A stretch of 64,000 bases of DNA from Escherichia coli (lineage in GTDB: Bacteria > Pseudomonadota > Gammaproteobacteria > Enterobacterales > Enterobacteriaceae): assembly GCF_003018255.1 (NCBI RefSeq), contig NZ_CP027440.1; one strand, given 5' to 3'. Every line of letters begins with the position of its first letter. The first letter of the stretch is position 1. Below, piece by piece: positions 30,239-59,925 of this stretch. The notes under the pieces are model-generated. The model was not told where the DNA came from. It ran no database searches and was given only the letters and a program-made list of their open reading frames with translations. The translations under genes were made by a program, and so were the position numbers.

Positions 30239-30276
30239 AGCTGCGGATATAACATTCTGAACCGCAGCTATTTGTG
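30239..30276 (+). terminator. hairpin terminator candidate after yeiS
   Basis: 8-bp stem AGCTGCGG/CCGCAGCT followed by T-rich tract. Confidence 0.45.
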
Positions 30277-30335
30277 AATCCTTTCACAGTTTAAATTTCC
30301 CCACGCGCATAGCCTTAATATCAGCACGCAATATT

Positions 30336-36900: not shown

Positions 36901-36916
36901 TGTGAAATCACTCACA
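36901..36916. promoter_or_regulatory. consensus CRP box upstream of mglB
   Basis: TGTGA-AATCAC-TCACA, perfect TGTGA-N6-TCACA, about 250 bp upstream of mglB ATG. Confidence 0.5.
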
Positions 36917-47127: not shown

Positions 47128-47985
47128 ATGAAATACATTGGAGCGCACGTTAGTGCTGCTGGCGGTCTGGCAAATGCCGCAATTCGCGCCGCCGAAATCG
47201 ACGCAACCGCGTTTGCCTTGTTCACCAAAAACCAACGTCAGTGGCGTGCCGCACCGCTCACGACGCAAACCATCGATGAATTCAAAGCCGCCTGTGAAAA
47301 ATATCACTACACATCGGCGCAAATTCTTCCCCACGACAGTTATCTGATTAACCTCGGACATCCGGTTGCTGAAGCTCTGGAAAAATCGCGCGATGCCTTT
47401 ATAGATGAAATGCAGCGTTGCGAACAGCTGGGGCTTTCTTTGCTCAACTTCCACCCTGGCAGCCATCTGATGCAGATTTCAGAAGAGGATTGCCTTGCGC
47501 GTATTGCCGAATCCATCAACATTGCGCTGGATAAAACTCAAGGTGTCACCGCGGTGATTGAAAACACCGCCGGTCAGGGCAGTAACTTAGGGTTTAAATT
47601 CGAACATCTCGCAGCGATTATCGACGGCGTGGAAGATAAATCCCGCGTCGGCGTCTGCATTGATACCTGCCATGCTTTCGCTGCCGGGTATGATTTGCGT
47701 ACTCCTGCCGAATGCGAGAAAACGTTCGCTGATTTTGCCCGTATTGTAGGCTTTAAGTATCTGCGCGGGATGCACCTCAACGATGCGAAAAGCACCTTTG
47801 GCAGCCGCGTTGACCGTCATCATAGCCTCGGCGAAGGCAATATCGGTCATGATGCGTTCCGCTGGATCATGCAAGACGACCGTTTCGACGGCATTCCGCT
47901 GATCCTTGAAACCATCAACCCGGATATCTGGGCAGAAGAGATCGCCTGGCTGAAAGCGCAACAAACTGAAAAAGCGGTGGCCTGA
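47128..47985 (+). CDS. nfo: endonuclease IV (AP endonuclease)
   Basis: 285-aa ORF, xylose-isomerase-like TIM barrel with conserved His/Asp/Glu metal ligands. Confidence 0.95.
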
Positions 47986-47988
47986 TCG

Positions 47989-49077
47989 ATGAACGACAGG
48001 GAAAAGCAGATTCTTAAAATTTTACGGCGTAACCCGCTGATTCAACAGAACGAAATTGCGGATATGCTGCAAATCAGCCGTTCGCGCGTTGCGGCGCATA
48101 TTATGGATTTAATGCGCAAAGGCCGGATTAAAGGCAAAGGTTACATTCTCACCGAGCAGGAATACTGCGTAGTGGTGGGGACAATCAATATGGATATTCG
48201 CGGGATGGCGGATATCCGTTACCCGCAAGCGGCTTCTCATCCCGGTACCATTCATTGCTCGGCAGGCGGCGTTGGACGCAATATCGCCCACAATCTGGCG
48301 CTGTTAGGCCGCGACGTCCATTTGCTTTCAGTGATTGGCGATGACTTTTATGGCGAAATGCTCCTGGAAGAAACGCGCCGCGCCGGCGTGAATGTCTCCG
48401 GCTGCGTTCGTTTACATGGCCAAAGCACATCGACGTATCTGGCAATTGCCAATCGAGACGATCAAACCGTGCTGGCGATTAACGATACCCATCTGCTGGA
48501 TCAGTTGACACCGCAACTACTGAACGGGTCGCGCGATTTACTTCGTCATGCGGGCGTGGTACTTGCTGATTGTAACCTGACAGCCGAGGCGCTGGAATGG
48601 GTCTTTACCCTCGCTGATGAAATCCCGGTGTTTGTCGATACCGTTTCAGAATTCAAAGCGGGCAAAATCAAACACTGGCTGGCGCATATTCACACCCTGA
48701 AACCCACTTTACCGGAGCTGGAAATTTTATGGGGACAGGCGATCACCAGCGATGCTGACCGTAATGCCGCAGTGAATGCGTTGCATCAGCAAGGCGTTCA
48801 GCAACTGTTTGTTTATTTGCCCGATGAGTCAGTTTATTGCAGCGAAAAGGATGGAGAGCAATTTTTGCTGACAGCGCCAGCGCATACGACAGTAGACAGT
48901 TTTGGTGCTGACGATGGTTTTATGGCGGGCCTGGTATATAGCTTTCTGGAGGGAAACAATTTCCGTGACAGCGCCCGTTTTGCGATGGCCTGCGCGGCAA
49001 TTTCACGCGCCAGCGGCAGCTTAAACAACCCTACCCTGTCTGCCGATAACGCGCTTTCATTAGTGCCGATGGTGTAA
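47989..49077 (+). CDS. yeiI: PfkB-family sugar/nucleoside kinase with N-terminal winged-helix domain, YeiI
   Basis: 362-aa ORF; N-terminal HTH (ILKILRRNPLIQQNEIADMLQISRSRV) fused to ribokinase-like fold (GGVGRNIA); paralog of psuK. Confidence 0.85.
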   Translation: MNDREKQILKILRRNPLIQQNEIADMLQISRSRVAAHIMDLMRKGRIKGKGYILTEQEYCVVVGTINMDIRGMADIRYPQAASHPGTIHCSAGGVGRNIAHNLALLGRDVHLLSVIGDDFYGEMLLEETRRAGVNVSGCVRLHGQSTSTYLAIANRDDQTVLAINDTHLLDQLTPQLLNGSRDLLRHAGVVLADCNLTAEALEWVFTLADEIPVFVDTVSEFKAGKIKHWLAHIHTLKPTLPELEILWGQAITSDADRNAAVNALHQQGVQQLFVYLPDESVYCSEKDGEQFLLTAPAHTTVDSFGADDGFMAGLVYSFLEGNNFRDSARFAMACAAISRASGSLNNPTLSADNALSLVPMV

Positions 49078-51424: not shown

Positions 51425-51592
51425 TGTTTATTTCCTCTGTTTCCAGTTGCGTTATTTTTTCTACAGCAAAGAAAATTCGACCGGGCCGATGATTGAATCT
51501 TAACAACAGCGTAAGTATGCTAAATATGAGAAATCTCATAGCGGATAAACATCGTGAAAGAAATCCACAATAATGACCTTAAGCAGCAATTG

Positions 51593-52252
51593 ATGAGTGA
51601 ATCTGCGTTTAAGGATTGCTTTTCAACGGATGTTTCAGCCGATACGCGGCTGTTTCATTTTTTAGCGCGTGACTACATTGTGCAGGAAGGGCAACAGCCG
51701 TCATGGCTGTTTTATCTGACGCGAGGCCGTGCCAGGCTTTACGCCACGCTTGCTAATGGTCGCGTGTCGCTGATCGATTTCTTTGCCGCTCCCTGTTTTA
51801 TTGGCGAGATTGAGTTAATCGACAAAGACCATGAACCGCGTGCGGTGCAGGCTATTGAAGAGTGTTGGTGCCTTGCGCTCCCTATGAAACATTACCGCCC
51901 GCTGTTATTAAACGACACGCTATTTTTACGAAAACTCTGCGTCACCTTAAGTCATAAAAATTATCGTAATATTGTTTCTTTAACTCAGAATCAATCATTT
52001 CCGTTAGTGAATCGCCTGGCAGCTTTTATATTACTCTCGCAGGAAGGTGATCTTTATCACGAAAAGCATACGCAAGCGGCAGAGTATTTAGGTGTTTCTT
52101 ATCGACATCTTTTATATGTTCTCGCGCAATTCATTCACGACGGTTTATTAATTAAAAGCAAGAAAGGGTATCTCATTAAAAACAGAAAGCAGTTGTCAGG
52201 ACTGGCACTGGAGATGGACCCGGAAAATAAATTCTCAGGGATGATGCAGTAA
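51593..52252 (+). CDS. yeiL: CRP/FNR-family transcriptional regulator YeiL
   Basis: 219-aa ORF from ATG 51593 (MSESAFKD); cNMP-binding-like fold and C-terminal HTH; track GTG 51554 rejected. Confidence 0.85.
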
Positions 52253-52319: not shown

Positions 52320-53570
52320 TCAAGCTAAACCAATAAAGAACCCGGCAATGGTCGCGCTCATCAGGTTGGAAAGCGTTGCTGCTGCCAGCGCCCGTAAACC
52401 AAGCTGGGCGATTTCCGGTGCGCGTTTTGGCGAAATAGCCGAAAATGCCCCAACGACAACACCGATAGAACCAAAGTTAGCAAAACCACAAAGCGCAAAG
52501 GAGATAATCGCAATGGTTTTCACTTCCAGCGTGCCGCCCGTTTGCAGGTATGGGGAGAAACTCAGGTAAGCGACGAATTCGTTAATCGCCAGTTTCTGCC
52601 CAATCAGGCTACCCGCAAGATTGGCATCACTCCAGTCCACACCCATGATCCACGCCAGCGGTGCCAGCACATAGCCAAAAATACTTTCCAGAGAGGCATT
52701 GGCGAAACCAAACCAGCCGCCAATTCCGCCGATAATGCCGTTGATCAGCGCAATAATTGCGACAAACGCCATTACAACCGTCGCCACACCAGCGGCGATT
52801 TTCAGCCCGGTCATCGCACCGCTCGCCGCCGCTTCGATAAAGCTTTTTGGCGGCGTTTCGCTGAACGACAGATTTTCAAATGTCACCTGCGAAGGCTCGG
52901 TGGCTGGGCTAAGAATACGTGCAAACAAAATACCACCAGGGATCGCCATCAGCGATGCCGCTAACAGGTAGTCAATTGGTACGCCCATTCCGGCATAACC
53001 AATCATCATCGAACCAGCAATGGACGCCATCCCGCTACAAATTGCGGTAAACAACTCGTTGCGATTCATGCGATCGATAAACGGTTTAACGATCGCCGGG
53101 ATCTCATTTTGCCCGAGGAAAATAGTGGTAACCGCAACAAAAGATTCGATTTTGCTGATGTTGAGGGCTTTCTGGAAAATGCTGCCAAGGATGCGAATCA
53201 GCAGCCCCATCACGCCAATGTAGTACAGCAGACTGATGAGCGCAGTGACGAAGATAATCGCCGGAAGTACGCGAAAGGCGAAGATAAAACCCGCACCGTC
53301 AAAGAGGACATCCATTTTCGGCCCGACCAGCGAACCAAAAATGAAGGCGCTACCGGCATCACTGTAAGACATCACTTTATGAACGCCTAATGCCGCCTGT
53401 TCTACCGCCCATTTTCCTGGTGGAAAATAGAGCATGATTCCGCCAATGGCGATTTGTAGCAGCAACGCGGCTCCAACCGTGCGCAAACTGATGCTCTTTT
53501 TATTCACTGACAACAGAAATGCTATTGCCAGTAACACCACCATCCCCACAACACTTCTCATTATATCCAT
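52320..53570 (-). CDS. psuT: NupC-family pseudouridine/nucleoside transporter PsuT (YeiM)
   Basis: 416-aa polytopic ORF; close paralog of nupX. Confidence 0.9.
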   Translation of the reverse strand: MDIMRSVVGMVVLLAIAFLLSVNKKSISLRTVGAALLLQIAIGGIMLYFPPGKWAVEQAALGVHKVMSYSDAGSAFIFGSLVGPKMDVLFDGAGFIFAFRVLPAIIFVTALISLLYYIGVMGLLIRILGSIFQKALNISKIESFVAVTTIFLGQNEIPAIVKPFIDRMNRNELFTAICSGMASIAGSMMIGYAGMGVPIDYLLAASLMAIPGGILFARILSPATEPSQVTFENLSFSETPPKSFIEAAASGAMTGLKIAAGVATVVMAFVAIIALINGIIGGIGGWFGFANASLESIFGYVLAPLAWIMGVDWSDANLAGSLIGQKLAINEFVAYLSFSPYLQTGGTLEVKTIAIISFALCGFANFGSIGVVVGAFSAISPKRAPEIAQLGLRALAAATLSNLMSATIAGFFIGLA

Positions 53571-53636
53571 ATTGATTTTCCCTTCATGCCAGTAAACCCG
53601 GCGTCAGCGCCAGGTTTTGGTATGCTTGATGAGTAC

Positions 53637-53664
53637 GGGCGACGGCTTTCTGCCCGTCAGAAAT
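53637..53664 (-). promoter_or_regulatory. conserved leader hairpin motif upstream of psuT (copy 2), overlapping psuG stop
   Basis: plus-strand GGGCGACGGCTTTCTGCCCGTCAGAAAT; mRNA stem GACGG/CCGUC. Confidence 0.35.
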
Positions 53665-54602
53665 TAACCCGCGAGACGCTGGTATTCTTTGGCTATTTCA
53701 CTCGCCAGGATGGCGTTGTTGAACACCAGCTGGATGTTGGATTTCAGGCTGTCACCGCCGGTCAACTCAGCAACGCGCGCCAGCAGGAATGGCGTACTTT
53801 CTTTACCAATAACACCCTGCGCTTCAGCTTCAGCTACCGCCTGATCGATCGCCGCATTGATAGTGTGTTCCGGCATAGCAAACTGTTCCGGAATCGGGTT
53901 CGCTACCACGAGGCCACCGTTCAGCCCGCTTTGCCATTTCACCGCCATTGCACGGGCAATTTCGCTGGCGCTGTCGAGACGAATGCTCACGTCAAACGGG
54001 CTGGTGCGGCAGAAAAACGCAGGCAGCGCTTTGGTCTGATAGCCAATTAGCGGTACACCGAAAGTTTCTAAATATTCGGTAGTTAAGCCTAAATCGAGAA
54101 TAGATTTCGCCCCGGCACAAACGACGGTGACATTGGTGTGCGCCAGTTCTTGCAAATCGGCAGAAATATCGAAGGTATGTTCCGCCCCGCGATGCACACC
54201 ACCAATTCCCCCGGTGGCAAATACTTTAATTCCGGCAAGCGCCGCAATAATCATCGTTGAAGCAACGGTGGTTGCACCATTTTTTCCGGCGGCAACAACA
54301 AAAGGTAAATCGCGACGACTAACTTTGGTCACGTTATGCCCTTCACGACCCAGCAATTCAATTTCTTCTTTGCTTAAACCCACTTTCATCACGCCGCCAA
54401 TAATGGCGATAGTGGCAGGTACAGCGCCCTGTTTACGAATAGTTTCTTCAACTTCAATTGCGGTCTGGGCATTTTGTGGGAACGGCATCCCGTGAGAAAT
54501 AATGGTCGATTCCAGCGCCACAACCGGTTTTTTGTTTTTTAAAGCGTCCTGCACTTCCGGGGAAATTTGTAATAATTCAGGGGAAATTTTTAATTCAGAC
54601 AT
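53664..54602 (-). CDS. psuG: pseudouridine-5-prime-phosphate glycosidase PsuG (YeiN)
   Basis: 312-aa ORF, IndA/PsuG family; overlaps psuK stop. Confidence 0.92.
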   Translation of the reverse strand: MSELKISPELLQISPEVQDALKNKKPVVALESTIISHGMPFPQNAQTAIEVEETIRKQGAVPATIAIIGGVMKVGLSKEEIELLGREGHNVTKVSRRDLPFVVAAGKNGATTVASTMIIAALAGIKVFATGGIGGVHRGAEHTFDISADLQELAHTNVTVVCAGAKSILDLGLTTEYLETFGVPLIGYQTKALPAFFCRTSPFDVSIRLDSASEIARAMAVKWQSGLNGGLVVANPIPEQFAMPEHTINAAIDQAVAEAEAQGVIGKESTPFLLARVAELTGGDSLKSNIQLVFNNAILASEIAKEYQRLAG

Positions 54603-55531
54603 TCTGCGTTCTCCACTAACGATATAACGTTGGCAATCGATAAATCGGGGTTATTGGTGTATTCACAGGAGAGCGCCATTGACGAACATCCCTGTGCGAA
54701 ACGAACAGATTCGGCAAACGGCATTCCGTCTACCCAACACGAAGCAAGTCCCGCCATCATGGCATCGCCCGCTCCGGTAACATTAATGACATTGGTTTTG
54801 ATCGGCGCAGACCAACCACTTTCACCGCTGATATCACTGTAATAAACGCCGTCGCCGCCCATGCTCAATACCAGTCGGTTCAGGCCATGTTGATGGAACC
54901 AGGCAGCAACTTTTGCCACATCTTCACGCCCTGACAAAGCAATCCCACTCAGGGTTTCCGCTTCAAGGCGGTTTGGCTTGAGAGTGTGGATTTGATTTAG
55001 ACGGTCGCGCACTTTGACACATTTCCACGCGGAAACAGGATCGACAAATACGGGTACGTTGGCGGCATTATCCAGAATCCATGCCAGTGCCTCTTCACTG
55101 ATATTACAGTCCGCGACAATGACCTTTGCCCTCTGAATAAATTCACCGTGCTGTGCGAGATATTCAGCTGTAATAGCGTTGCTAATATTCATGTCATTTA
55201 TAGCAACCAGCATTTCACCGGTATTATCGAGTAATGATAAATAGCTCGACGTATTTTCTCCCGGCACAATCAGGCATTTATCGACATAAACACCAGATTG
55301 ATTGGTTTGCGTTAGCAGCGATTGACCATAAAAATCACTGCCTACGGCGCTCAGTAGCCAGGCTTTATTCCCCAGCAACGCCAGGTTTTGTGCAATATTG
55401 CGCCCTACTCCACCAGGCGTAAACTTTATTTTACCTGGATTTGAATCCGCATAATTTAATGATTCATGTGAATATCCGGCGACATCAATATTCGCCGAAC
55501 CTATAATTACGACATAATCCTTTTCGCGCAT
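54590..55531 (-). CDS. psuK: pseudouridine kinase PsuK (YeiC), PfkB family
   Basis: 313-aa ORF with ribokinase-like motifs (GGVGRNIAQN, GAGDAMMAG). Confidence 0.9.
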   Translation of the reverse strand: MREKDYVVIIGSANIDVAGYSHESLNYADSNPGKIKFTPGGVGRNIAQNLALLGNKAWLLSAVGSDFYGQSLLTQTNQSGVYVDKCLIVPGENTSSYLSLLDNTGEMLVAINDMNISNAITAEYLAQHGEFIQRAKVIVADCNISEEALAWILDNAANVPVFVDPVSAWKCVKVRDRLNQIHTLKPNRLEAETLSGIALSGREDVAKVAAWFHQHGLNRLVLSMGGDGVYYSDISGESGWSAPIKTNVINVTGAGDAMMAGLASCWVDGMPFAESVRFAQGCSSMALSCEYTNNPDLSIANVISLVENAECLN

Positions 55532-55598
55532 AGCACGTCCTCTGGTAAAAAATTACCAACCCTGTCAATCCACAAGAATATAGATACTGCAAAGACGG

Positions 55599-55634
55599 TT
55601 TAAACATGTGTTCATATTTAAACATGTGCTCATA
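55599..55634. promoter_or_regulatory. tandem 18-bp direct repeat upstream of psuK (candidate regulator-binding site)
   Basis: TTTAAACATGTGTTCATA immediately followed by TTTAAACATGTGCTCATA, then an inverted partial copy (GCATGTTTTAC); 70-100 bp upstream of psuK ATG. Confidence 0.35.
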
Positions 55635-55771
55635 GTATGCATGTTTTACGTAAAGTAAATTACCGCCAGAGATGCAAAATGGGCAGATTTGAGCAGGCTC
55701 ACAAAACGCGATTAAATGCCTGAATTATAAAAACGGGGAATTTGTGACGGAATGCACAGAACAGGAACACT

Positions 55772-55797
55772 AAAAAAGGGCAGAAATTAATCTGCCC
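55772..55797 (-). terminator. rho-independent terminator about 160 nt downstream of fruA
   Basis: minus-strand hairpin GGGCAG-N8-CUGCCC followed by U6 run. Confidence 0.6.
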
Positions 55798-55916
55798 TTG
55801 AGGAAATAACCTTAGTGTTTGATGAAAGTTTCAGGTTTCCACTAAAAGATAAAACCATTTAAATTCATAAAATTACATTCACAAACCGGTCATTCTCTTT
55901 GCGCGCATCAAATGTT

Positions 55917-55941
55917 CCAGGGCAGGAAATTTCTGCCCTGG
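55917..55941 (-). terminator. hairpin immediately downstream of fruA stop (weak terminator or RNA stability element)
   Basis: 9-bp stem CCAGGGCAG/CTGCCCTGG with 7-nt loop; only a short U tract follows on the minus strand. Confidence 0.4.
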
Positions 55942-55954
55942 AACACACCTTTTA

Positions 55955-57646
55955 TTACGCTGCTTTTGCTACTGCGTCCACTTCCGGACGTTTCAGGAAG
56001 GCATAGGCCAGACCCGCCACCAGCGTACCGGCAATAATGGCTACCAGGTAACCCAGTACCGGCGTAATAGCGCCAGGGATCAGCAGAACAAACAGACCAC
56101 CGTGCGGTGCCATCAGTTTCGCACCAATCGCCATTGAGATTGCGCCAGTCAGCGCCCCACCAACGATACAACACGGCAGCACACGCATCGGATCACGAGC
56201 AGCAAACGGAATTGCACCTTCCGAAATAAAGCACAGACCAAGAACCAGAGCGGCTTTGCCACCTTCCTGCTGCGCTTTGTCGAATTTGCGACGCGCCACC
56301 ATTGTTGCCAGACCCATTGCCAGCGGTGGCACCATACCTGCCGCCATAATCGCCGCCATCGGGCCATAGGTTTGAGTACTCAGCAGACCCACACCGAATG
56401 CGTACGCTGCTTTATTTACCGGACCGCCCATGTCAGTACACATCATGCCACCGAGGATCGCCCCCAGCAGAACCGCATTCGCAGTCCCCATGGTCTGCAG
56501 CCAGTGAGTCAACCCTTCGAGAATGCCAGCAACCGGTTTACCGATCAGGTAGATCATCGCCAGACCGACCACCAGACTGGAAATTAGCGGAATGATCAGG
56601 ATCGGTTTCAGCGCCTCCATACTCTGTGGCAGTTTCAGTTGCGTACTGATTAACTTCGCAATGTAACCAGCCAGGAAGCCCGCAATAATACCCCCAATGA
56701 AGCCAGAACCGGTGCTGACCGCCAGCATACCCCCAATCAGACCCGGCGTGAGACCCGGACGATCGGCAATGGAGAAGGCAATGTAACCTGCCAGTACCGG
56801 CACCATCAGCGCAAAGGCTGAACCACCACCAATCTGCATCAGCGCCGCTGCCAACGTACCCGGCTCTTTAAACGCTTCGATACCAAAAGCAAAAGAAAGC
56901 GCGATACACAGACCACCTGCAACGACCATCGGCAGCATGTAAGAGACGCCCGTCAGCAAGTGACGGTAAGCGCCTGCACCCTCTTTCTTACCTTCAGTGG
57001 TCGCTGTTTGAGCTTTGCCCGCCGGTTCATACGGCGTTGCTTCAGCAACCGCTTTATCCAGTTCCTGCGCGGTTTTCTTCAGCGCCAGACCGGTAGAGGT
57101 GCGATACATCGGTTTACCAGCAAATTTCGCCAGATCCACTTCGATATCTGCCGCCACAATCACCAGATCCGCTGCGGCTACTTCTTCAGGGGTGATCGCA
57201 TTACCCGCGCCAACAGAACCACGGGTTTCAACTTTCACCCACCAGCCACGTTTTTTCGCTTCGGTTTCAATGGCTTCAGCCGCCATAAATGTGTGTGCTA
57301 CGCCAGTCGGGCAAGCTGTCACCGCAACTACGCGTTTCGGACCGCTGGTGGCAACTGGTGCTGTCGCAGCGACCGGTGCAGTGTAAGGTTTCGCATGGCC
57401 TTTGGCTTCACTCAGGAACAGCTCAGGGTGCGCAACTGCCCGGGAAATATCGCCCAGCCAGACATTTTTACCGTTCAGCGCGCTGTCGTTCGGGATGGAA
57501 TCACCGAGAACAATCGCCATTTCAGCGTCGTTCGGATTGTCGATGATTTCCAGTTTTGCTTTTCGCGCCGCCGCGCCCAGCAGGGTCTTCGCCATATAGG
57601 CGCGTGCCTGACCGAGATTAGCGTCAATAATCAGCAGCGTTTTCAT
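55955..57646 (-). CDS. fruA: PTS fructose-specific EIIB-prime-BC component FruA
   Basis: 563-aa ORF with duplicated IIB domain (VTACPTGVAHT) and IIC membrane domain. Confidence 0.95.
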   Translation of the reverse strand: MKTLLIIDANLGQARAYMAKTLLGAAARKAKLEIIDNPNDAEMAIVLGDSIPNDSALNGKNVWLGDISRAVAHPELFLSEAKGHAKPYTAPVAATAPVATSGPKRVVAVTACPTGVAHTFMAAEAIETEAKKRGWWVKVETRGSVGAGNAITPEEVAAADLVIVAADIEVDLAKFAGKPMYRTSTGLALKKTAQELDKAVAEATPYEPAGKAQTATTEGKKEGAGAYRHLLTGVSYMLPMVVAGGLCIALSFAFGIEAFKEPGTLAAALMQIGGGSAFALMVPVLAGYIAFSIADRPGLTPGLIGGMLAVSTGSGFIGGIIAGFLAGYIAKLISTQLKLPQSMEALKPILIIPLISSLVVGLAMIYLIGKPVAGILEGLTHWLQTMGTANAVLLGAILGGMMCTDMGGPVNKAAYAFGVGLLSTQTYGPMAAIMAAGMVPPLAMGLATMVARRKFDKAQQEGGKAALVLGLCFISEGAIPFAARDPMRVLPCCIVGGALTGAISMAIGAKLMAPHGGLFVLLIPGAITPVLGYLVAIIAGTLVAGLAYAFLKRPEVDAVAKAA

Positions 57647-59833: not shown

Positions 59834-59925
59834 AGAGCATAATACTTTTGTTTCAGCACGCAAGGAAAGCCGTAAAGTTATGAGCAAAAGTTTGATGTGC
59901 TGCACAATTTTTTGTCATTTTTCCT

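Follow-up and report, generated by a model that had tools for sequence, protein, structure and literature searches.

Among the closest described counterparts of the system considered here are the ROK repressors NagC, Mlc and XylR. In these proteins an N-terminal winged helix-turn-helix (wHTH) is joined to a kinase-like, sugar- or nucleoside-binding sensor domain. They act on catabolic or uptake operons as repressors, from palindromic operators close to the promoter and in many cases jointly with CRP, and active paralogous kinases coexist with them. A comparable arrangement is proposed here for YeiI, a protein encoded in a 64,000-nucleotide stretch of the Escherichia coli genome (assembly GCF_003018255.1, contig NZ_CP027440.1; this whole stretch is called the window), in which a tandem 18-bp direct repeat precedes psuK, the first gene of the psuK-psuG-psuT operon (psuKGT). 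This operon is among the most repeatable targets of E. coli adaptation in mouse gut colonisation or long-term stationary phase. An earlier note, made from the sequence of the window, had taken the repeat for an operator array, had named YeiL as an obvious candidate regulator, and had known of no regulator assigned to psuKGT. A literature search found none, nor any 'PsuR', and it returned no function for YeiI, no CRP at yeiC and no description of the AACA-N2-TGTT motif reported below. Comparative genomics points to YeiI, not YeiL, as the regulator. We give a probability of roughly 0.6 to the reading in which two adjacent palindromic operators lie on the psuKGT promoter and are bound by one or more YeiI dimers acting as a repressor, with CRP as activator.

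The two units of the repeat are identical at 17 of 18 positions. Tandem Repeats Finder recovered them as an array of period 18 with 2.0 copies, 94% matches and a score of 65, which places the array among the three top-scoring ones of the 64-kb window, and a second repeat search returned the same pair; chance is an unlikely origin for such a repeat. The repeat is situated inside the 423-bp psuK-fruA intergenic region (fruA ends at 55955), 68-103 nt 5' of the psuK ATG (55531, minus strand). On the psuK strand, the order is TACTAT-GAGCACATGTTTAAATAT-GAACACATGTTTAAAC. Each unit has dyad symmetry and thus contains one palindromic site (sites A and B, Table 1); the cross-genus consensus is RARCA-YR-TGYTY, with the core AACA-N2-TGTT. 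The palindrome ACATGT, which had been singled out previously, is present in each unit; however, the half-sites are kept while the centre varies among relatives (CACATG, CATGTG, CACGTG, CATATG), and ACATGT is therefore not the conserved feature. The reported inverted partner is likewise present, as GCATGTTTTAC, but it is weak: 8 of its 11 positions agree with the unit, it scores below threshold with both site matrices, and within it AAACA alone (55643-55647, psuK strand) is kept across genera. A third operator at this position was rejected, since neither matrix supports it. Binding of CRP to the repeat itself was also rejected, because TGTGT-N6-TTAAA is a poor match and its G residues are not kept in the second E. 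coli allele; a better CRP-like site is found 70 nt further upstream. By comparison of consensus sequences, none of Cra, CytR, NsrR, ArcA, PhoP, OmpR, CpxR, KdgR, GlpR, PurR and FabR is known to fit both the half-site and its spacing.

Table 1. Features of the psuK upstream region and of the presumed regulatory partners, in window coordinates.
Feature	Position	Strand	Description
Tandem 18-bp direct repeat	55599-55634	.	unit 1 55599-55616 TTTAAACATGTGTTCATA; unit 2 55617-55634 TTTAAACATGTGCTCATA; 17/18 identical
Site A (O1)	55620-55631	-	12-bp palindrome GAGCA-CA-TGTTT, centred on the inferred transcription start ~55625
Site B (O2)	55602-55613	-	12-bp palindrome GAACA-CA-TGTTT, 18 bp downstream of site A, ~+18
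Partial inverted copy GCATGTTTTAC	55639-55649	.	in the -35/-10 spacer; no full site
Inferred -10 TACTAT	55632-55637	-	TAYTAT kept across genera, 16 nt after the -35
Inferred -35 TTTACT	55654-55659	-	TTTACW invariant in the alignment; 55657 is the recurrent SNP (single-nucleotide polymorphism) position
CRP-like site TGTGA-GCCTGC-TCAAA	55688-55703	-	centre 55695.5, ~-70.5 from the inferred start ~55625
Alternative promoter-like match TTTAAA-16-TATATT	55577-55604	-	E. coli only; overlaps site B
psuK-psuG-psuT operon	52320-55531	-	psuK 54590-55531, psuG 53664-54602, psuT 52320-53570; presumed controlled genes
yeiI	47989-49077	+	winged HTH (aa 1-48) fused to a PfkB kinase-like domain; proposed regulator

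In 4232 complete E. coli genomes the 601 bases around the repeat have a match, at 95-99.8% identity, which lies between psuK and fruA. The loci compared came from K-12, O157, a second E. coli allele (strain Z1323 type), E. albertii, other Escherichia clades, Citrobacter, Buttiauxella and Salmonella, and the upstream alignment consisted of ten sequences from Escherichia, Citrobacter, Buttiauxella and Salmonella. The conserved blocks in this alignment are TTGTGA-N6-TCAnATCT, TTTAC, TAYTAT, A-CA--TGTT and GAA-A---G-T--AA, while the sequence between and around them is variable. The half-sites AACA and TGTT are invariant or nearly so, and the 2-bp centre is free (CA, TG, CG, TA). In all Enterobacteriaceae loci compared, site A is conserved as RARCA-YR-TGTTY and the distance from palindrome to palindrome is constant at 18 bp. 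The main E. coli allele alone has a unit-to-unit identity of 17/18; the value falls to 12-14/18 in Citrobacter and the second E. coli allele, with each unit still palindromic. The near identity of the units points to a lineage-specific homogenisation of an older two-site array, which both E. coli alleles keep (the window type in 4213 genomes, the Z1323 / E. albertii type in 1194). Upstream of psuK, the two-site array is kept in Escherichia, Citrobacter, Buttiauxella and Salmonella. The palindromic units, the conservation of the pair across genera beyond that of its flanks, its position abutting a conserved promoter and the recurrence of the motif before psu operons of unrelated lineages all support the earlier proposal of an operator array for a dimeric regulator. 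The psuK-fruA intergenic region (window 55532-55954; loci L002/L026), and apparently also psuK, exists as two diverged alleles in the E. coli population; the E. albertii-like allele (1194 genomes) contains a REP-like insert, and psuK of strain Z1323 is also frameshifted.

The identity of the protein that may bind these sites is suggested by yeiI. Its product matches HTH_24 with E=2.7e-11, and its PfkB domain is 38-40% identical to PsuK. In all enterobacterial loci examined, the gene and psuT converge. In one Salmonella strain a four-gene yeiI-psuTGK cassette occupies a different chromosomal site, adjoining relBE-like genes, and yeiI is still convergent to psuT. HTH-PfkB homologs were found in eight further lineages: Yersinia, Serratia, Xenorhabdus, Pasteurella, Shewanella, Aliivibrio, Ferrimonas and locus L027. 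In all eight, the psuG operon begins with HTH-PfkB and a separate psuK is lacking, and in most of them no other regulator gene adjoins the operon. The upstream regions of these lineages are not alignable with that of E. coli, yet the motif is present, for example as ACCAAACACTTGTTTGGT in Yersinia and TCCAAACAAATGTTTGGT in Shewanella. Paired sites stand 18 bp apart in Pasteurella, Yersinia and Serratia and 19 bp apart in Aliivibrio and Ferrimonas; a consensus promoter (TTGACT-17-TATAAT) directly precedes ATAAGCATGTGCTTAA in L027, and Yersinia and Xenorhabdus have further copies ~250-280 nt before the gene.

The association of the motif with psu operons is also visible in counts and scores. Of the 29 exact copies of AACA-N2-TGTT in 281 kb of loci, 18 are at most 310 nt upstream of a psu operon. 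When all 4+4 palindromes were counted without bias, AACA-N2-TGTT came first, being found in 7 of 8 independent upstream regions, while 200 shuffles reached at most 4. A matrix built from non-enterobacterial sites only ranks 55600-55615 first of 63,985 window positions. Conversely, a matrix built from enterobacterial sites only ranks first, in 6 of the 8 loci, a site at most 40 nt from the HTH-PfkB start. With the site matrix the psuK sites score 18.5-20.9 bits. The best match outside psuK, ATGAGCAAAAGTTTGA at 59880-59895 (upstream of fruB, in the fruBKA promoter region), scores 13.3 bits and is probably due to chance. The called starts of HTH-PfkB in Yersinia (L016 7001-7030) and Serratia (L019 6001-6030) fall inside an operator (ATGTTTAAA...); an alignment suggests that the true start is nine codons downstream, with both sites in the leader.

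The protein itself has the properties expected of a sensor rather than an enzyme, if conserved residues are a guide. Between YeiI and the in-operon class, identity is 64% in the wHTH and 43% in the kinase domain; within YeiI the respective values are 91% and 72%. A strongly conserved fused wHTH requires a DNA target, and AACA-N2-TGTT is the only conserved candidate beside the HTH-PfkB genes. The residues S30, N143 and K170, defined as pseudouridine-binding determinants (PMC9061257), are retained in YeiI as well as in the in-operon HTH-PfkB proteins. All YeiI orthologs (at least 66% identity) with readable motifs carry DxFGADD and KPT, with 36 clusters read at both, whereas all in-operon HTH-PfkB proteins carry the canonical NxxGAGD and KPN, and no protein combined motifs of the two types. 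PsuK forms a homodimer via a beta-thumb, and this thumb bends when pseudouridine binds (PMC9247573). The confident AlphaFold model of YeiI (pLDDT 90.8, pTM 0.85) shows a three-helix wHTH and a domain superposing on PsuK at 1.8 A, and a search of solved structures found none with the HTH+PfkB architecture. YeiI has been listed as a protein of unknown function (PMC9061257) and as a hypothetical transcription factor (PMC6055005). Judging from these motifs, enterobacterial YeiI is probably a pseudouridine-sensing repressor. The gene begins 3 nt past nfo (window 47985-47989); this gap leaves no room for a promoter, so yeiI is probably co-transcribed with the endonuclease IV gene.

The position of the sites relative to the promoter can be deduced from a mutation selected in evolution experiments. 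One psuK/fruA intergenic A>C change rises repeatedly in mouse-colonising E. coli (PMC7518454, PMC9509342), and the identical change is also recurrent in long-term stationary phase (PMC7858067), where the supplement annotates it as 'intergenic (-126/+297)'. Mapped via K-12, psuK -126 A>C corresponds to window position 55657; read in the direction of psuK, TTTACT becomes TTGACT, which is a classical -35 up-mutation. The adaptive SNP thus supports the hexamer as the -35 element and places the sites at ~+1 and ~+18. TTTACT-16-TACTAT would then be a sigma-70 promoter with a weak -35 and a start at ~55625 (~2259390 in K-12 NC_000913.3), and site A would overlap the start of this conserved promoter. 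An alternative, E. coli-only match exists (TTTAAA-16-TATATT, Table 1), which is not kept in other genera and is destroyed by a 10-nt deletion in the Escherichia lineage L006. Upstream of the -35, the CRP-like site agrees at 9 of the 10 core positions with TGTGA-N6-TCACA and is kept across genera; such a pattern occurs at 3 loci in the window, against 0.23 expected. The promoter map obtained in this way comprises the CRP-like site, the -35 hit by the SNP, the -10 and the two operators.

Several further observations concern the same region. The TTGACT variant is present in 5 of 4025 E. coli genomes (the finished genomes of ER1821R, ER2683, S17-1 and ST18, laboratory strains to judge from their names, and one pigeon isolate), has been noted in the ZK1142/ZK1143 parents (PMC7858067), and is essentially absent from natural isolates. 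Directly beside the psuK Shine-Dalgarno sequence stands a hairpin, GGTAAttttTTACC (55544-55557, minus strand); it is kept across genera, and two of its pairs are compensatory (GGTAA/TTACC versus GGCAA/TTGCC). A sigma-54 reading of TGGCA..TTGCC next to the Shine-Dalgarno sequence was rejected in favour of this small hairpin, since the spacing fits some species only and no leader would be left. A terminator-like strong hairpin with a T-run is located at 55776-55799 (minus strand), ~115 nt past the hairpin at the fruA stop (55913-55945). Two hairpins in series therefore precede the psuK promoter, and GGGCAGA/TCTGCCC occurs three times (55681, 55777, 55919). Between the two hairpins downstream of fruA, TGAAAGTTTCA at 55823-55833 (TGAACGTTTCA in O157) resembles a Cra/FruR half-palindrome. 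Elsewhere in the window, perfect CRP cores (TGTGA-N6-TCACA) are found at 30273-30288 and 36901-36916, and the coding overlap of psuG and psuK has a 21-bp tandem repeat at 54555-54594 (1.9 copies, 89% matches, score 66).

If YeiI is the repressor, a YeiI dimer or a pair of dimers would occupy the palindromes at and just after the transcription start and so block RNA polymerase. Pseudouridine, or its phosphate, bound in the kinase-like pocket would alter the dimer geometry, and the DNA would be released. In the absence of glucose, cAMP-CRP would activate from ~-70.5. The ancestral protein may have been a bifunctional kinase and autorepressor whose roles were split into PsuK and YeiI in Enterobacteriaceae. 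In a wider form, which we hold to have about an even chance of being correct, wHTH-PfkB proteins would constitute an unrecognised family of nucleoside-sensing regulators with an AACA-N2-TGTT operator, typically present as two sites 18-19 bp apart. Such a protein would be a bifunctional pseudouridine kinase-autorepressor in most Gammaproteobacteria and at least one unrelated lineage, and a duplication in Enterobacteriaceae would have yielded the enzyme PsuK, which lost the HTH, and the catalytically degenerate pseudokinase repressor YeiI (GADD, KPT).

The proposal that YeiL binds the repeat and regulates psuKGT has some attraction. Its gene (yeiL, 51554-52252, encoding a CRP/FNR-type protein) adjoins psuT in E. 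coli, the inner half-sites TGTTT-N6-GAACA have the 5-6-5 geometry of CRP-family proteins, and a resemblance exists between the left halves of E. coli site A, TATGAGCA, and of a candidate YeiL box, TATGAGAA. However, the yeiL-rihB-nupX block is absent from the psu loci of E. albertii, Citrobacter and Buttiauxella, in which psuT is followed directly by yeiI-nfo-yeiH and the sites are conserved. YeiL homologs are patchy in distribution, reaching as far as Enterococcus, and they also occur in some Citrobacter and Buttiauxella species, so that the protein may be encoded elsewhere in those genomes. The conserved partner of yeiL, though, is a divergent operon of the rihB type (IU_nuc_hydro), seen in Hafnia, Enterococcus and C. 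amalonaticus, and in Hafnia and Enterococcus no psu genes are nearby. The yeiL-rihB intergenic region moreover carries a different palindrome, TATGAGAAATCTCATA / ATATGAGAAATCTCATAG (51524-51541, just 5' of yeiL), of the form TGAGA-N2-TCTCA, which is kept in C. amalonaticus, Hafnia and, as TATGAGAATTCTCACA, Enterococcus; motif and matrix scans of the window found no AACA-N2-TGTT near yeiL or rihB. As for the CRP-type geometry, lineages with a single site show that the unit is AACA-N2-TGTT, and the motif precedes psu operons whose sole linked HTH is the PfkB fusion. Control of psuKGT by YeiL must be regarded as very improbable, and the palindrome at 51524-51541 is likely to be the YeiL box for the divergent rihB-type operon, for yeiL, or for both. 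This redirects YeiL to another likely target, the box at the rihB promoter.

The sites could also be operators of an unlinked factor, such as DeoR, CytR or an uncharacterised global factor of Gammaproteobacteria, given that the association between the motif and psu operons does not in itself name a protein. For DeoR in particular, the inner TGTTTAAATATGAACA agrees at 11 of 16 positions with its operator, TGTTAGAATTCTAACA, but Shewanella and Yersinia carry the motif as a single AACA-N2-TGTT palindrome, so the unit is not the DeoR-like TGTT-N6-AACA. The accessible parts of the evolution experiments mention no yeiI mutations, which would suit a factor encoded elsewhere. Such a factor would nevertheless need the phyletic spread of HTH-PfkB, because the motif reaches the unrelated L027, and it would leave the fused wHTH without the adjacent target that its conservation demands. 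We consider an unlinked factor unlikely, though far from negligible. Another possibility is that the repeat acts as an RNA element of the psuK leader (a structure, or a site for a protein or a small RNA) in the 5' untranslated region. With a start at ~55625 most of both units would be transcribed, and the small hairpin with its two compensatory pairs is found further down the leader. A 12-nt palindrome with a 2-nt centre, however, cannot fold on itself, symmetric half-sites kept around a free centre are a pattern of protein-DNA recognition, the extra copies in Yersinia and Xenorhabdus are placed far upstream, and an Rfam scan of 55000-56500 returned nothing relevant. There is consequently little to recommend this explanation. 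If the repeat had arisen by a recent 18-bp duplication or gene conversion and were neutral, without any function, this would account for the 17/18 identity being confined to the main E. coli allele, with 12-14/18 in other genera; such an origin is hardly credible as the whole explanation, because the two-site array with 18-bp spacing is older, being present in both E. coli alleles, in other genera and as distant pairs 18-19 bp apart.

Some observations weigh against YeiI as the repressor acting at these two sites. The link between regulator and motif comes from gene fusion and gene neighbourhood only, and the literature search returned no binding, footprint, expression or transcription start site experiment for YeiI or the psuK promoter. 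No matching site 5' of nfo-yeiI, and hence no autoregulatory site for yeiI, was found by motif and matrix scans of the window. The 18-bp spacing sets two dimers on different faces of the helix, and for many HTH dimers half-sites only 2 bp apart would be close. Site B of Salmonella is degenerate (matrix score 6.8), and if the E. coli-specific TTTAAA-16-TATATT were the promoter, the sites would be found at -35 to -70. Finally, in the accessible text and supplements of the evolution studies, the -35 SNP is the only change at this system and yeiI loss-of-function mutations are not reported, whereas loss mutations in frlR, srlR and dgoR were found in those experiments. Knock-outs of yeiI would be expected of a simple repressor; their absence is odd, except if the operon is already induced by pseudouridine in those settings and expression is limited by promoter strength.

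The wider reading would provide a function for yeiI, a gene of the y-ome, and would explain why a single -35 point mutation is the sole means by which psuKGT expression has been seen to rise in gut and stationary-phase evolution. If YeiI does repress psuKGT, it would also be the first known PfkB-fold counterpart of the ROK-type kinase-derived repressors, and the pair PsuK-YeiI would represent a clear subfunctionalisation of a bifunctional enzyme-regulator. A pseudouridine-responsive pair of repressor and operator could moreover serve as a biosensor for pseudouridine production strains.

Compared with known systems, the similarity to the ROK repressors is one of organisation: ROK proteins have the ASKHA (actin-like) fold and YeiI the PfkB ribokinase fold, the operator sequences differ, and the function of YeiI is deduced from comparison. 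The in-operon HTH-PfkB proteins of Yersinia, Pasteurella, Shewanella and others are closer to 'trigger enzymes' such as BirA and NadR, because they have intact catalytic motifs and are the only kinase in their operon. They would be both enzyme and autoregulator, as BirA and NadR are, although the enzyme families differ. Unlike in BirA and NadR, in E. coli these roles appear to be split between PsuK, which has no HTH, and YeiI, with GADD and KPT. In its half-sites the array resembles the operators of CopY, BlaI and MecI, which bind as wHTH dimers to 4-bp half-sites with a 2-bp gap (xACA-NN-TGTx) in TACA-N2-TGTA boxes, two of which often overlap the promoter. The geometry of the half-sites alone is similar here; the family, dimerisation domain and signals of these proteins are unrelated to those of YeiI. 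The psuK promoter, with a candidate site ~70.5 nt upstream of the inferred start and a weak -35, would also be similar to class I CRP promoters, for example malT, where CRP is at -70.5. The PrfA box TTAACA-NN-TGTTAA is near the psuK half-sites in sequence, and the candidate YeiL box TGAGA-NN-TCTCA shares the 2-bp gap; for this CRP/FNR family, however, phyletic and neighbourhood evidence links YeiL to rihB and not to psuK. The operator array upstream of psuK is an ordinary kind of element, and its probable regulator would be an unusual variant of the kinase-derived repressors.

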